Of a DNA stretch of 64,000 bases, positions 2,023-46,405 are shown piece by piece; within the stretch, counting starts at the first letter, position 1, and each line of letters starts with the position of its first letter. The stretch comes from a phage. The stretch is taken from sequence record PZ179883.1; one strand, written 5' to 3'. Position numbers and translations under genes: made by a program. A model generated the notes under the pieces. The model ran no database searches. It was given only the letters and a program-made list of their open reading frames with translations, and was not told the DNA's origin.

Positions 2023-2865
2023 TTAATCAACTGCTATTGGATGAATAGCATTAAACTTATGAAATGCTTCTGATTTTTCTTTACGCGAAACACACATGCG
2101 AAGAACCTTTAATGGCTCGTCTTCTTCACCCAACGATTTTCGTTTTTCAATATTCGATGTTTTCCAACGAGCTTGCTCTGGAAACTCTCTATTGATTTGC
2201 TCAAGCGCTCTATTATGTTTAGAATTACTACGAATTGAACTACATCCACCGGGAGCGTGTGATTTTCCAGATACAACTAGATATTTGAACAAGGCCAAAT
2301 GCGGATAACCTTGATTAATTAAATTGAGAAATGCATACATATCTTCGCATAAATCAATTTTTCCATACCCAATTTGTTCTGTCGTAAGTTTTCCGAGGTC
2401 ATACCATGTATTCGTGAATCCATATGAGTTTTCACGATAATTACCCCAAGATGAAGTAATTTTAAAAATTGGTAGACGAGCATGACCGTGATAATACCCG
2501 CAATCCATGGCATCTTCAACATATTGAATCAATTCATAGAACTGTTCACGAGTTAATTGATTAATTTTATCTACACGCCGTTTATCGTCTCTCTTTCGTA
2601 TTGAACTCATACGAATAGTAGTATCATCATCAATCATCCAGATTCGTTGACCTGCATACATATCAGTAATTGCTTTACGAGTACCAGCAATTCCATTAAC
2701 ATCATCAGGAATAGTTATAATTTTAGCTCTAGACCCATAAGCGTCATAATAAGCTTTTTCTTCGTGTTTACGTACTACAATATGAGGTTCATAATCAGTT
2801 GGAAACATATCAAGGGCAGAAACTGCCCCTACACGCTGATAACTTGGAATTACGAATTGAATCAT
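2023..2865 (-). CDS. Glycosyltransferase at the beta-gt locus; not T4 beta-gt-like, possibly a T2/T6-type beta-glucosyl-HMC-alpha-glucosyltransferase
   Basis: 280 aa ORF occupying the uvsX-to-42 interval where T4 has beta-gt; sequence does not resemble T4 beta-gt as I recall it. Assignment is by position. Confidence 0.5.
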   Translation of the reverse strand: MIQFVIPSYQRVGAVSALDMFPTDYEPHIVVRKHEEKAYYDAYGSRAKIITIPDDVNGIAGTRKAITDMYAGQRIWMIDDDTTIRMSSIRKRDDKRRVDKINQLTREQFYELIQYVEDAMDCGYYHGHARLPIFKITSSWGNYRENSYGFTNTWYDLGKLTTEQIGYGKIDLCEDMYAFLNLINQGYPHLALFKYLVVSGKSHAPGGCSSIRSNSKHNRALEQINREFPEQARWKTSNIEKRKSLGEEDEPLKVLRMCVSRKEKSEAFHKFNAIHPIAVD

Positions 2866-3503
2866 TTAAGTGCCTTACATTTGTCAAAATGGTATCTTGT
2901 CATATTTGGCCCACGTCCTTTTAGTCCGCAATGCGGACATATTTTTTCTATCAAATTATGAGGTTTTCCTTTACGATTTTTAGACATCGTTTCTTTAATT
3001 ATTTTAGCTTTTTCTACGCCAAAAATTTCTTCATAAGTTTTACCAGAATTTTCCTTGGCTCGATTTATAATTCCATATGCCTGCTCATTTTTACCATACA
3101 TTGGATTACCTTCGCCTTTCATTCTTTTAGAATGATCAGGACGCTTGATTCCACGAAAGGCATTTCCGCACTTATATCTTTCTTCTGGAGATAGTTTTTT
3201 ACCGTACATTCCATTTAATTTGCCTGGAAAACTTCCTCCCCATGCTTCATTCTTTAAATTATATGAATCCGGACAATTAGCAGCATCTAAACAAGTTAAA
3301 ATAATTTCTTCAACCTGTCTAAACATTGGTCCTTCATATAATATTTCTTTATTAAAGGATTTTATTCCATATTTCTTTTTAGCATGTTGCCAAACTACAC
3401 CCGAACCATCATAATTCGGGTTGTGACCATCATGACTTCCTATATACCACTTTTTAGTTTTAGGATGTTTATACTTATAAACATGTGGCACATTTACTTC
3501 CAT
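2862..3503 (-). mobile_element. Free-standing GIY-YIG homing endonuclease with C-terminal zinc-finger region
   Basis: N-terminus VYKYKHPKTKKWYIGS fits the GIY-(10 aa)-YIG motif; repeated NPMYGK-type motifs; CPHC...HFDKC zinc-finger-like C-terminus; 4 nt and 10 nt overlaps with flanking genes. Confidence 0.7.
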
Positions 3504-4234: not shown

Positions 4235-4387
4235 TTAAACCTCAATTGATACATTCATATTTAACTTGTAACAGTAATAAACCCCAACCTAAAATAATAG
4301 TTGGAATCATAAGAGGAACCGTTACACTATAGTATATACTTATTATAATCATCAAGATTAAAAGCAACACTGCTATAATTTTGCTTT

Positions 4388-4639
4388 TCATTCCTTCTCT
4401 CTGATGATAATTACTTGATTTGGCTGTGCAGACTTTTTAGTTTCACCAGCAATTGACCAAATAAATGTAATAAACCAACCAATGATTGACCAGTTAAACA
4501 GTAAAGATGTAAAAAAGATTCCTACTGTCGATTTTGACCCACGCATCAAGGCAATGAACCAAGGAAGCATGTATATAATAATAGCCAACACACCTGAAAC
4601 TAAAACCATAAAAATTGAACCTGCTACTAAAGTTTCCAT
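4388..4639 (-). CDS. imm: Imm superinfection immunity membrane protein
   Basis: 83 aa with two hydrophobic helices; between 42 and 43 as in T4. Confidence 0.7.
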   Translation of the reverse strand: METLVAGSIFMVLVSGVLAIIIYMLPWFIALMRGSKSTVGIFFTSLLFNWSIIGWFITFIWSIAGETKKSAQPNQVIIIREKE

Positions 4640-4646
4640 GTTTTCC

Positions 4647-5027
4647 TCACTTAGTCAAATTTTTTACGCATGAATTATAAGAATTTACTACATACTCAAT
4701 CGGAGCATTTTTACCAGTACGCCATTGATAATTATTAGCCCAATTAGCCCAAAGTTCGGCACAGTAACTTTCAATTTTTTCTTCACGTGTAATCACATCT
4801 GAATTACGATATGCTTGAGCAGATTCATCTGGACGAATAGCTTCGTCAAAATTCGCCTGCATTTGTTCTACTGTCTGTTTTGGAGCTTCTTTATAACACT
4901 TAACATTAGGATTATAAAATTTGCTTGAACAGTTTACAATTTTTCGTACATCAGACTGATTTACTACTGGTCCTTGAGCTACACAGCCAGTAAGACCCAA
5001 TGCAATAACCAAAATAGCGATTTTCAT
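4647..5027 (-). CDS. Predicted lipoprotein (lipobox LTGC)
   Basis: N-terminus MKIAILVIALGLTGC is a classic signal peptide plus lipobox; lies between imm and 43, where I recall no gene in T4. Confidence 0.6.
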   Translation of the reverse strand: MKIAILVIALGLTGCVAQGPVVNQSDVRKIVNCSSKFYNPNVKCYKEAPKQTVEQMQANFDEAIRPDESAQAYRNSDVITREEKIESYCAELWANWANNYQWRTGKNAPIEYVVNSYNSCVKNLTK

Positions 5028-5037
5028 AATAATTTCC

Positions 5038-5274
5038 TCAAATACAAGTAGTAATTACTCCAGTAGTGCTTACACAGGTATTACCTAATTGAACACCCAG
5101 CGTTCCATTAGTATTCATATGAAGATTATCATCAATTTTTGTTGATACTTTACCATTCATGCGAATAACAGTATTAGATTCAATCACATTCTGAGTGTCA
5201 TTTTCAATATCAATAAATGGAACAGCTGCTAATGCAACTAAACACGCTGCTAAACAACCATAAACAATTTTCAT
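5038..5274 (-). CDS. Small secreted protein (about 78 aa) with N-terminal signal peptide
   Basis: Internal start MKIVYGCLAACLVALAAV with GGAG Shine-Dalgarno; the longer ORF-track version (5038..5463) reads through an early promoter and is likely artefactual. Confidence 0.5.
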   Translation of the reverse strand: MKIVYGCLAACLVALAAVPFIDIENDTQNVIESNTVIRMNGKVSTKIDDNLHMNTNGTLGVQLGNTCVSTTGVITTCI

Positions 5275-5304
5275 TTTATTCTCCAAATCCGTATCAGTTG
5301 ATAA

Positions 5305-5360
5305 TTGTATAGTACCACGGAAGAACAGGGATGTAAACCATTTTGTGAAAAAATTTTTAA
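5305..5360 (-). promoter_or_regulatory. T4-type early promoter (TTTACA-N17-TACTAT with A/T-rich UP element)
   Basis: Minus strand -35 at about 5332-5337, -10 at about 5309-5314; upstream of the small secreted-protein gene. Confidence 0.6.
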
Positions 5361-5426
5361 TGAATTCCAGAGGTCCAGAATCATCTATTTTTCCTAAGTA
5401 TAGATTTATATTACTTGTATGAAAAA

Positions 5427-5442
5427 GGGACCCGGAGGTCCC
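5427..5442 (-). terminator. GC-rich tetraloop hairpin followed by a T-run (terminator/RNA stabiliser)
   Basis: gggacc-cgga-ggtccc with T-run on the minus strand; just 3-prime of gene 43. Confidence 0.55.
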
Positions 5443-5455
5443 TAGATTTATTCTA

Positions 5456-8152
5456 TCAGCCAAACAGGAAGTCTAACGAAGCTTTTTCCTCATAGTCCAT
5501 ACCCGCCGATTCACACATACCCGCAAGCGGTTTAACAAACGATTTTTGGAACAAAGTTGAGTAGTCAATCCAAGACAGTACATCAGAACGAATTTCTTTT
5601 GGAAGTTCCGTACCCGATGGCCAAGCAATGCACTTGTCACCAAATGGATTTCCCTCACGTAATGGAAGAACCATTACCTTATTTCCATCCAAAATTGGAG
5701 CTACACCTAAACCGCTAACAGCTCGACGATAAGTTAGCACCCCACGAATGTGGAACGGGCATTTAAATCCTGGCCAACCTTTATCGTCATATTTCGCTAT
5801 ATCGTTCGCAGTTTTTACTTCAGCAATAACTTTATAGTCAAGTTGACGATATTCTTTCTCAAAGTTCTTATAGTATTCTTGGACAGACTCTTCACCTTCC
5901 TGAAGAATGCGACGAATACTTTCTTCGAGAGCTTCTTGTACTGCTTTTGGTGTTGAACTCTGCTGAGTTTCCATACCCATGATTTTTAGATGTGGTTCAG
6001 CAAATCGTTTATCTTCCATATCATAAACGTTCAGAGCATAACGTTTTTTCGCTTTCCAAAATCCACCAACACCCTTTGAACCAAGCGGAGGACAAGAAAT
6101 AGCTTCACGGTCCATATGCATCAGATGCTCGCGGTTATTCATATAATCACATAACTCACGATATGCAACATCAATCATAGGTTCCATCTTTTTCTTACCA
6201 AACTGATTCATGAATTCAACTAAATCATTTTGTTCTTTAAAGCGATCAAGACCTACTTTTTCAATAACTTTATCTACACAAACATATACCGAATCAGTAT
6301 CACCCGCTGCGATGAAATCTTCGCCATTAGTTCCACACACCTTATTCAAGTATTCATTAATTTTACGAGCAATCCACTGAATACCAACTTGACCAAAAAT
6401 TGTGATAGCAGTAGCATTTCGCAAATCATAATAACGGAAATGAATATTACCAAGAGCACCATAAAGACTGTTGATAAGAATTTTACGGTTTAGCTGATTT
6501 GTGTTAGCAAGAGTAGCTGCTTTTTCACATTCTTCAATCAGACTATTAAGAACAGATTCGGTGTAATTCGATAATTCATTTAAGAAATCATCATTGAACT
6601 TAACATATCGTTCAACTTCTGGTTTAGTTGAACAAGACCCTGCACCTTTCATAATAATCTTTTTAATAGCTTCGGCATTCATTTCTTCGGCGAACATTTT
6701 CTTTTTCCAATCTTTACGCTGGAAAAATACTTTAGCGATTTCCTTTGGAATGATACCTTCTTGGTGCTTATCATACATCCATCCATTCGGAGAGCAAGAA
6801 TATTCATCACTTGGCTTAGGAGCTGTTCCTGCGATGTATTCATGAATTGGATGAACTTTGAACTGACCACGAATAGTTTCAGGACTAATGTTAACCTGAC
6901 GAATAATGCTAGGATACAGAGACGTCAAGTCAAAACTCATAATGTATCGACGGGCAATCGCTTTAGGTTCAAACACAAATGCACCTGGAAAACTTTGTTT
7001 AACGTGCGAACCTTGTTGAGGAATAACCTTGTGTTCACCTTTCAATGAGTTAAAAATAATAGCATCCCAAGTTTTAATAGGACTCATTACACCAGAAAAA
7101 GGCATTTTAGCGTAATAAGACATACTTAAAACTAGATCGATAAACCCACGAATTTTATCAATTGCTTGAACTGATTCTACGTCAATGATGTTATAACTAA
7201 TGTATCGTTGATGATTAGTCTCACGAAGTTTATTAATAGGACCGTCGTATGGTAATTTACCTTTTTTGGTTTCATGTTGAGCAACTGATTCCAAAGAGAA
7301 TGATGGCAAATTAGTAAATGCGAATTTTTTGTACAAATCTAAATAATCAAGAATAGATACGCCATCAATAGAATAAATTTCTTTGCTACCGTACATATTT
7401 TGAATTAGTTTAGATTTTACTCGACCGATTGGGGAGAAGCGTTTCATACTGCGTTCGCCCAGAACCATTTTAACGCGATTCATGATATACGGAACGTCAA
7501 ATCCCTCAATATTCCAACCGGTAAAAATAGCAGGTCGTTTCTGTTCCCAGAGATTAATATATTCCATGAGCATATCACGCTCATTATCAAATGGCATATA
7601 AATTACTCGGTCAAGAATTTCTTGAGGAACTTCATCACCACCTTCACAGTCAAGCTTAGCAGCTAACTTTGCATCCCATTTTGATACTGAACCGTACATT
7701 GAATTCAAAAGGTCGAAAACATAAAAACGATCATCAATTGAATCGTAATGAGTGATAGCATCAATTTCATATTCAGCTTTCATTGGGTCAGGAAATTTAT
7801 CACCAGTAACCTCAATGTCACAGTTAGCTACACGAACAAATTTTCGGTCATAAACAATTTCTGAACCATACGTATCACTGATATAAGCGAGTTTAAAATC
7901 GTTCATACCGAGAGCTTCGAGACCGATGTCTTCCATTCGCTTCATCCAATCTCGAGCATCTTTCATTGATGGAAATTTTTGAGGAGCGCAGTTTTTACCG
8001 TAGATGTCTTTGTATTTTGACTCTTCCTTACAATGCCTAAACATAGTTGGAAGATATTCTACTTCACGAGTACGTTCCTTTCCGTTTTCATCAATATAAC
8101 GTTCAACAATATTATTTCCGACTGTTTCGATAGAGATATAAAATTCTTTCAT
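5456..8152 (-). CDS. 43: DNA polymerase gp43 (family B)
   Basis: 898 aa, T4 gp43 length; exonuclease and polymerase motifs (for example DTDS); preceded by the gp43 translational operator hairpin. Confidence 0.97.
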   Translation of the reverse strand: MKEFYISIETVGNNIVERYIDENGKERTREVEYLPTMFRHCKEESKYKDIYGKNCAPQKFPSMKDARDWMKRMEDIGLEALGMNDFKLAYISDTYGSEIVYDRKFVRVANCDIEVTGDKFPDPMKAEYEIDAITHYDSIDDRFYVFDLLNSMYGSVSKWDAKLAAKLDCEGGDEVPQEILDRVIYMPFDNERDMLMEYINLWEQKRPAIFTGWNIEGFDVPYIMNRVKMVLGERSMKRFSPIGRVKSKLIQNMYGSKEIYSIDGVSILDYLDLYKKFAFTNLPSFSLESVAQHETKKGKLPYDGPINKLRETNHQRYISYNIIDVESVQAIDKIRGFIDLVLSMSYYAKMPFSGVMSPIKTWDAIIFNSLKGEHKVIPQQGSHVKQSFPGAFVFEPKAIARRYIMSFDLTSLYPSIIRQVNISPETIRGQFKVHPIHEYIAGTAPKPSDEYSCSPNGWMYDKHQEGIIPKEIAKVFFQRKDWKKKMFAEEMNAEAIKKIIMKGAGSCSTKPEVERYVKFNDDFLNELSNYTESVLNSLIEECEKAATLANTNQLNRKILINSLYGALGNIHFRYYDLRNATAITIFGQVGIQWIARKINEYLNKVCGTNGEDFIAAGDTDSVYVCVDKVIEKVGLDRFKEQNDLVEFMNQFGKKKMEPMIDVAYRELCDYMNNREHLMHMDREAISCPPLGSKGVGGFWKAKKRYALNVYDMEDKRFAEPHLKIMGMETQQSSTPKAVQEALEESIRRILQEGEESVQEYYKNFEKEYRQLDYKVIAEVKTANDIAKYDDKGWPGFKCPFHIRGVLTYRRAVSGLGVAPILDGNKVMVLPLREGNPFGDKCIAWPSGTELPKEIRSDVLSWIDYSTLFQKSFVKPLAGMCESAGMDYEEKASLDFLFG

Positions 8153-46348: not shown

Positions 46349-46405
46349 TTGTATAGTACCATGGAAGAACAGAGATGTAAACAGTTTTGTGAAAAAATTT
46401 TTAGG
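46349..46405 (-). promoter_or_regulatory. T4-type early promoter
   Basis: TTTACA N17 TACTAT; near-identical to the 5305 copy including the UP element. Confidence 0.6.

Follow-up and report, generated by a model that had tools for sequence, protein, structure and literature searches.

A predicted early lipoprotein, Imm.1, beside the superinfection immunity gene imm in the imm operon of a T4-like phage

The subject of this analysis is the imm region of a T4-like phage, sampled as a stretch of 64,000 nucleotides (nt) from sequence record PZ179883.1 (hereafter the window, to whose first letter all positions refer) and assigned to Tequatrovirus. Most of what follows concerns imm.1, a lipoprotein gene located immediately upstream of the superinfection immunity gene imm. 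The genes of the region all lie on the minus strand; listed from gene 43 to gene 42, the features are as follows.

End at 5456, minus strand: gene 43 (DNA polymerase)
5422..5443, minus strand: intrinsic terminator of gene 43, AGGGACC-TCCG-GGTCCCT followed by TTTTT, the stem-loop half of a cassette of the early promoter and stem-loop (PeSL) type
5309..5358, minus strand: T4-type early promoter, consisting of an A/T-rich upstream element, GTTTACA, a 17-nt spacer and TGGTACTAT
5038..5274, minus strand: ORF78, 78 amino acids
4647..5027, minus strand: imm.1, 126 amino acids
4388..4639, minus strand: imm, 83 amino acids
4342..4367, minus strand: middle-promoter-like site for gene 42, TGCTT ... TATAAT, inside the 42.1 reading frame
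4242..4391, minus strand: 42.1 (UniProt Y02C type), 49 amino acids
3494..4234, minus strand: gene 42 (dCMP hydroxymethylase)

The 1.3-kb interval matches 524 phage records at 90–97% identity, with Escherichia phage A6-6 at the top (97.3%). All four small open reading frames (ORFs) are already annotated or catalogued genes, and a known function is on record for Imm alone. The T4 reference record has 43, imm.1 (125 amino acids), imm, and 42, in this order. The interval is the early “imm operon” of T-even phages, with four envelope-targeted products encoded between genes 43 and 42. An earlier note on this DNA had described such a cluster, and all of its ORFs are present on the minus strand, the cluster starting at 4242 rather than at 4261 as given there. 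The envelope targeting it had proposed also holds: a lipobox, a signal peptide and hydrophobic segments are predicted and kept in homologs, and no homolog is a cytoplasmic protein of known function. According to a crude gene call of the window, a strongly hydrophobic segment occurs in 14 of 108 ORFs, and the imm cluster is the sole run of four, for which the probability of chance occurrence is ~0.03 (0.13^4 multiplied by ~105 positions).

Each of the four ORFs has a Shine-Dalgarno sequence and an ATG. At three junctions the preceding stop codon lies inside the following ribosome-binding site (TGAGG...ATG), the stop codon of imm and the start codon of 42.1 overlap (ATGA), and in T4-type phages the stop codon of imm.1 overlaps the ribosome-binding site of imm. 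Taken with the terminator and the promoter, this coupling indicates that the four ORFs form one early polycistronic unit running into gene 42. The gene 43 terminator is kept in all phages compared. The promoter (TTTACA-N17-TACTAT at 5338..5309, upstream of ORF78) agrees with the consensus TTTACW-N17-TAYWAT published for the PeSL cassettes of PST and T4 (PMC4122927), and the spacer between gene 43 and ORF78 has the further marks of such a cassette, i.e. a stem-loop and variable ORFs alongside. The 78-residue gene had been credited with an early promoter of its own. A promoter does precede it, but in T4 it is imm.1 that comes directly after the same promoter and Shine-Dalgarno sequence, so this is the promoter of the whole operon and not of ORF78 alone. 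As for the middle-promoter-like site, the SA21RB record annotates the orthologous site as a middle promoter. An Rfam scan of the region returned no family match.

Imm.1 begins with MKIAILVIALGLTGC and has the composition of a lipoprotein precursor (MK-IAILVIALG-LTGC), with a positively charged N-terminus, a hydrophobic stretch and a lipobox of the form [LVI][ASTVI][GAS]C whose cysteine falls within the first ~40 residues. The earlier note's description of a 126-residue lipoprotein with lipobox LTGC (Cys15, 4647..5027) is thus exact. In Escherichia coli, Asp at position +2 of a lipoprotein causes retention in the inner membrane (the Asp(+2) rule). Imm.1 has Val at +2, from which sorting to the outer membrane is predicted, and its four further cysteines (residues 33, 44, 89, and 120) would suit a periplasmic, disulfide-bonded protein. 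The protein matches Pfam PF17578 (DUF5481) over the complete profile (positions 1–103 of 103, E 2e-69, 230.8 bits with a cut-off of 27), and phrog_1754 with E 1.1e-41. It is 96.8% identical to T4 Imm.1 (NP_049661, UniProt P18057), differing by one C-terminal Lys added through a 1-nt indel and by three private substitutions. The T4-type imm.1 occurs in ~500 records at about 90–99% identity, and a type with 32% identity occurs in 155 more.

The selective constraint on the operon was estimated as the ratio of nonsynonymous to synonymous substitution rates (dN/dS, Nei-Gojobori) across 12–15 Tequatrovirus loci. The lowest value belongs to the C-terminal part of gene 43 (0.026), followed by imm.1 (0.039), imm (0.049), and gene 42 (0.08), with 42.1 (0.30) and ORF78 (0.36) higher than their neighbours. 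Selection on Imm.1 is therefore as strong as on the replication enzymes, including DNA polymerase. In T4, imm.1 belongs to the early class for both RNA and protein (PMC9697503 supplement). It was classified as “Not Fit” by CRISPRi-ART (PMC11879866 supplement) and as non-essential by HIDEN-SEQ, with 31 of 31 insertion sites hit, and imm was likewise non-essential (10.1101/2025.11.20.689424 supplement). Tight constraint without a laboratory phenotype is typical of genes for competition or defence, which by itself does not identify the function.

These properties also bear on a possible role in lysis. Imm.1 is small and a predicted outer-membrane lipoprotein, as would be expected of an outer-membrane spanin (o-spanin), yet its gene is early rather than late and dispensable for plaque formation, and no inner-membrane spanin (i-spanin) partner is embedded in it or adjacent to it. 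Furthermore, Serratia phage LC53 has, apart from its imm.1-type lipoprotein, a separate gene elsewhere annotated as an Rz1-type lipoprotein, and T4 has its own spanin pair, pseT.3/pseT.2. Imm.1 is thus most improbable as the o-spanin.

The names attached to imm.1 in databases have drifted. RefSeq calls the T4 gene “iduronate sulfatase”, and many records use “immunity” or “superinfection immunity protein”; for the labels “iduronate sulfatase” and “immunity” no Pfam or NCBIfam support was found. PADLOC and NCBIfam scans gave nothing meaningful, and DUF5481 is not mentioned in the papers searched.

Imm itself is the known 83-residue superinfection immunity protein of the inner membrane. It matches PF14373 (Imm_superinfect) with E 8e-16 and 58.2 bits (cut-off 27.9), as well as phrog_1039, and in the window it is 100% identical to the Imm of many Tequatroviruses. 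It is reported to block genome entry through binding of the tape-measure protein gp29 (bioRxiv 10.64898/2026.03.06.709160). A side observation concerns its start. The 1-nt indel at the end of imm.1 and upstream of imm (4640–4660; T4 TTTGACCTAAG, window TTTGACTAAG) places a stop codon in the alternative 94-residue Imm frame that was used for cryo-electron microscopy in a 2026 preprint. The N-terminal extension is hence not conserved, which favours the 83-residue start.

Conservation beyond Tequatrovirus was followed by translating the ORFs that flank imm in other genera and matching them to phrog_1754. Each of the imm-flanking lipoproteins found there has L[TAVS]GC and matches phrog_1754 over its full length, with E from 1e-15 to 1e-52. 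Lipoproteins of this family are adjacent to imm in three gene arrangements and at least seven genera:

43 - lipoprotein - imm - 42: Tequatrovirus, S16 (Gelderlandvirus), Boboto (Jiaodavirus), PS2 (Muldoonvirus), and two metagenomic contigs
43 - imm - (42.1) - lipoprotein: IME08 (Dhakavirus) and SP18 (Gaprivervirus)
dmd - lipoprotein - imm - spackle: JK45-type phages, far from gene 43, the gene 43 side retaining 42.1 only

The lipobox is kept in all nine aligned family members, as are the counterparts of C89 and C120. Among 1.84 billion representatives, an exhaustive profile search yielded just 27 clusters of the phrog_1754 type. The lipobox is present in 23 of the 25 cluster representatives inspected, and Asp at +2 in none. 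The two family members that have an ordinary signal peptide in place of the lipobox place the working domain in the periplasm. None of the 27 clusters pointed outside the phage family: one fragment is labelled Xanthomonas campestris, the rest of that library is nameless, and none was placed in a bacterial genome. A word-indexed protein search gave only 3 Imm.1 clusters, and IMG/VR only 5 loci. Since BLASTP between Imm.1 and the LC53-type lipoprotein showed similarity in the signal peptide only, family membership was taken from the PHROG profile. Within the imm operon, Imm.1 alone appears to have an evolutionary tie to Imm, judging from these arrangements. It may be added that in the JK45-type phages (locus L009, 2495–3530) every exclusion gene, known or suspected, stands in one uninterrupted group, with dmd on one side and the primase region on the other.

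Regarding the function of Imm.1, the reading preferred here is one allied with exclusion or with envelope protection, which seems quite possible, if short of probable. Imm.1 would be a disulfide-bonded lipoprotein on the periplasmic side of the outer membrane, anchored in its inner leaflet, and would act as an early accessory periplasmic factor allied with Imm. Rather than on a receptor, it would probably act on some conserved element of the injection apparatus of an incoming T-even phage, or on the envelope where injection takes place. Imm.1 might then constitute a third exclusion arm in addition to Spackle and Imm, or might serve to protect the envelope of the infected cell. Repeated adjacency in three gene orders, strong purifying selection and early expression all lend indirect support to such an alliance, and imm.1 is dispensable in the laboratory, as imm is. 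Among the three neighbours of imm in the operon, an exclusion role is plausible for Imm.1 only. A more specific version is rather doubtful, namely that the phrog_1754 family is an unrecognised third exclusion arm blocking or capturing conserved injection machinery between the two membranes. The candidate targets would be the tip of the tube, the gp5-gp27 hub, or the portion of the tape-measure protein exposed to the periplasm, and such an arm would complement lysozyme inhibition by Spackle and the block of the inner-membrane pore by Imm.

Several observations weigh against an alliance with Imm. In LC53 (Winklervirus) the order is 43 - lipoprotein - arabinose-5-phosphate isomerase - 42.1, with spackle also present in the genome, and the Imm profile had no match in the 142 of 172 kb searched, which include all early regions, while controls were detected with E from 1e-26 to 1e-40. 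The gene 43 side of EcS1 is arranged as in LC53. A lipoprotein without a detected Imm implies that the lipoprotein is not an obligate Imm partner. Plasmid-expressed Imm alone excludes T4 according to the preprint on Imm, which makes no mention of Imm.1 (bioRxiv 10.64898/2026.03.06.709160), and in the literature no experiment was found on exclusion by Imm.1, ORF78 or 42.1. Moreover, the structure is of little help. The AlphaFold2 model built on the family alignment has a mean confidence (pLDDT) of 59 and a predicted TM-score (pTM) of 0.55, only the C-terminal helical hairpin (residues 81–104 and 110–125) being moderately confident, and Foldseek against BFVD and PDB, together with a profile search of PDB sequences, returned family members or noise only. 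With a weak model and uninformative fold relatives, the mechanism is not readable from structure. Finally, gene order is generally conserved among T4-like phages, and the adjacency of the lipoprotein and imm may be partly inherited.

Carried further, the last point becomes an explanation of its own, in which adjacency is nothing but inherited gene order and Imm.1 serves in the envelope independently of Imm, for instance by making the outer membrane or peptidoglycan more stable or remodelling it, by countering an envelope-based host defence, or by tuning lysis. This is a serious possibility, though hardly a probable one. It fits the arrangements of LC53 and EcS1, the sufficiency of plasmid-borne Imm, and the broad synteny of T4-like genomes; Imm homologs are also found in non-T4 phages with genomes of ~40–50 kb, whose neighbourhoods were not examined for a lipoprotein. 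In contrast, inheritance explains less well that the pair is adjacent through two independent rearrangements (the move to spackle in JK45-type phages and the inversion in IME08 and SP18), or that the stop codon of imm.1 and the ribosome-binding site of imm overlap in T4-type phages.

Receptor masking was among the roles suggested earlier, and it would here be exerted from the periplasmic side by Imm.1 or ORF78. Its models are the exclusion lipoproteins by which FhuA is inactivated, Llp in T5 and Cor in T1-like and phi80-like phages, and Imm.1 shares their location and class as an early phage-encoded lipoprotein predicted in the outer membrane. If it masked one particular receptor, Imm.1 should differ between phages that use different receptors, and it does not. 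It is near-invariant (95–99% identity) across ~500 Tequatrovirus records and identical at 122 of 125 positions between T2 and T4 (121 of 126 between T2 and the window), despite the different receptors of the two phages (FadL/OmpF for T2, OmpC/lipopolysaccharide for T4). Nor did Imm.1 match the Cor family (phrog_1119) in PHROGs at E ≤ 0.1, Llp not having been compared separately, and the PS2 relative of Imm.1 matches Cor over the signal peptide only (residues 1–40, E 8e-4). Receptor masking is accordingly disfavoured for Imm.1 and appears very unlikely overall. Should Imm.1 contribute to exclusion, some conserved element of the injection apparatus or the envelope is the likelier target.

As for ORF78, its product begins with MKIVYGCLAACLVALA|AVPF and has the layout of a Sec type I signal peptide: M-K, then IVYGCLAACLVALA, and A14-L-A16 before A17. 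The assignment is rule-based (charged start, hydrophobic core, small residues at −3 and −1), and it bears out the claim of a 78-residue signal-peptide protein at 5038..5274. The prediction is a normal signal peptide that is cleaved off (an N-terminal anchor at most) and a periplasmic product. The mature peptide has ~62 residues and a highly conserved C-terminus, LGVQLGNTCVSTTGVITTCI; the AlphaFold2 model, which is poor (pLDDT 53) and gives no mechanism, consists of a signal helix followed by short strands and is beta-rich. The family is phrog_4189 (E 4.5e-27). The signal region is conserved in homologs and tolerates 7-residue in-frame duplications of its core: in-frame 21-nt tandem duplications (CLVALAA-type) give variants of 85–89 residues in several phages.

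Two other descriptions of ORF78 were rejected. UniRef labels one variant “Lipoprotein”, and LAAC with Cys11 could be taken for a lipobox, but in homologs with 59–63% identity Cys7 and Cys11 are replaced by Val and Ser; with its cysteines not conserved, ORF78 is not a lipoprotein. A 141-residue form starting at TTG (5038..5463) would cross the promoter and the terminator and overlap the end of gene 43, whereas conservation begins at the ATG at 5274.

The distribution of ORF78 is uneven. It is found in 326 phage records, compared with ~500 for T4-type Imm.1, at 77–97% protein identity, and has no counterpart in T4. In the spacer alignment, the ATG of imm.1 in T4 and in one metagenomic relative follows straight on the same terminator, promoter, and Shine-Dalgarno sequence. 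The junction of gain or loss falls within an 8-nt identity, ATGAAAAT, the start sequence common to ORF78 and imm.1. In T2 the slot between promoter and imm.1 is occupied by an unrelated 83-residue ORF without a signal peptide (T2 locus 849–1100). In dhabil-type phages a homolog of ORF78 is found in a different variable region, close to the genes for lysozyme, nudix, and denV, flanked by the same initiation-region sequences (TGGAGAATAAAATGAAA ... TGAGGAAA.TATTATGAA), with 59–63% identity and the frame kept. ORF78 is thus an accessory, mobile and exchangeable cassette. Since it can be absent, replaced, or relocated elsewhere, its place beside imm.1 is incidental, and its candidacy as an imm-linked exclusion factor, put forward in the earlier note, is left unsupported.

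Two observations on the same slot may be recorded here. The segment between promoter and imm.1 (5028–5285) is a cassette hot-spot, empty in T4, holding ORF78 in the window and another ORF in T2. In Shigella phage CT01 (locus 1309–2146) it contains a scrambled chimera of the imm.1 5' end and the middle of ORF78, followed by the 3' part of the promoter in a second copy and then by a full imm.1, which looks like recombination between repeated initiation regions.

The remaining ORF of the cluster, 42.1, encodes 49 residues with two hydrophobic segments separated by a proline-containing turn and a conserved tail, KYEC(I/F)N; a small hairpin peptide of the inner membrane is predicted. A hydrophobic ORF of about 30 residues had been noticed between gene 42 and imm. 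It is indeed hydrophobic, but has 49 residues (4242..4391); in distant phages the ~30 C-terminal residues are the conserved part. The product matches phrog_3610 over its full length (E 5.7e-26). Its frame is intact but unannotated in the RefSeq record of T4, the ORF of the window being 96% identical to the T4 frame, and the records of RB32 and T4T carry the annotation 42.1. Homologs occur in 762 records. Over residues 20–49 the identity is 47–60% in Mosigvirus (RB69-like), Winklervirus and Kagamiyamavirus, including 57% for the LC53 homolog, for which Pfam PF26865 (Phage_T4_Y02C) is recorded. In these three genera, where imm is missing from the vicinity, 42.1 follows and overlaps an arabinose-5-phosphate isomerase gene that is located downstream of gene 43; vice versa, in S16 and Boboto imm is directly followed by gene 42, without 42.1. 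The peptide therefore appears to be a conserved membrane peptide of the locus whose presence is independent of imm, and the proposed link to imm finds no support, 42.1 persisting downstream of gene 43 where imm is absent.

Given their size, ORF78 and 42.1 could also be chance frames kept open by overlapping signals. Both are short with dN/dS above their neighbours', the middle-promoter-like site lies within 42.1, and T4 RefSeq leaves 42.1 unannotated. On the other hand, both have a Shine-Dalgarno sequence with ATG, dN/dS below 1, and PHROG families; the 42.1 protein is conserved at 47–60% in other genera with different neighbours, and the frame of ORF78 is kept at 59–63% identity at another genome location. 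That either is not a real gene is highly improbable.

Elsewhere in the window, the strand that carries the imm promoter has at least seven other sequences of the T4-type early promoter (GTTTAC[A/T] at a distance from a TA[CT][AT]AT −10 box downstream); the early-promoter-like sites of the minus strand are at 46382, 39653, 31876, 29954, 26979, 23692, and 19391. Three of them (46382, 31876, and 29954) have extended flanks near-identical to those of the imm promoter (for example ...ttttcacaaaa, and ...acaactatca downstream), which makes them possible recombination substrates. On the other side of gene 42, a 213-residue ORF resembling homing endonucleases (2862–3503, minus strand), with a weak, sub-threshold NUMOD3 match, is located between gene 42 and the beta-glucosyl-HMC-alpha-glucosyltransferase gene (2023–2865). 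Its relatives are annotated as GIY-YIG or homing endonucleases. It is found in only 91 phage records and is absent at this position from SA21RB and Shfl2; in T4, gene 42 is followed by b-gt.

The classic system by which T4 excludes secondary phages has two proteins that have been characterised, Spackle and Imm, and a conserved, constrained early lipoprotein beside imm would be the obvious candidate for a step between the two membranes. A result on Imm.1 in either direction would assign a function to a gene that is carried by hundreds of T-even phages considered as candidates for therapy, would inform the design of phage cocktails, in which related phages exclude one another, and would correct the misleading database labels (“immunity” and “iduronate sulfatase”). 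The ORF78 slot, in turn, offers a clean natural case of cassette exchange at a translation-initiation microhomology.

In comparison with known systems, the nearest is T4 itself. Its Imm.1 is the ortholog of the Imm.1 of the window and likewise lies directly upstream of imm, while no ORF stands between promoter and imm.1, where the window has ORF78. T4 42.1 (Y02C; PF26865, phrog_3610) is the same gene as the 49-residue ORF of the window, with no material difference. The intergenic region resembles the PeSL cassettes with ORF shuffling of T4-type phages (PMC2839356, PMC4122927), having a matching stem-loop and promoter and variable downstream genes among close relatives; however, the ORF78 junction falls in the translation-initiation sequence ATGAAAAT, outside the PeSL. 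Llp of T5 and Cor are, like Imm.1, small phage-encoded lipoproteins, early or lysogenic and predicted in the outer membrane, which suggests a possible functional analogy, although no relationship with Cor in sequence extends past the signal peptide and Llp was not compared. As for Spackle of T4 (Sp, gene 61.3), it is soluble and its family is unrelated to Imm.1. It is, however, also small, early, periplasmic, and disulfide-bonded, it targets the gp5 lysozyme that an incoming virion carries, and its gene directly follows the lipoprotein–imm pair in JK45-type phages.

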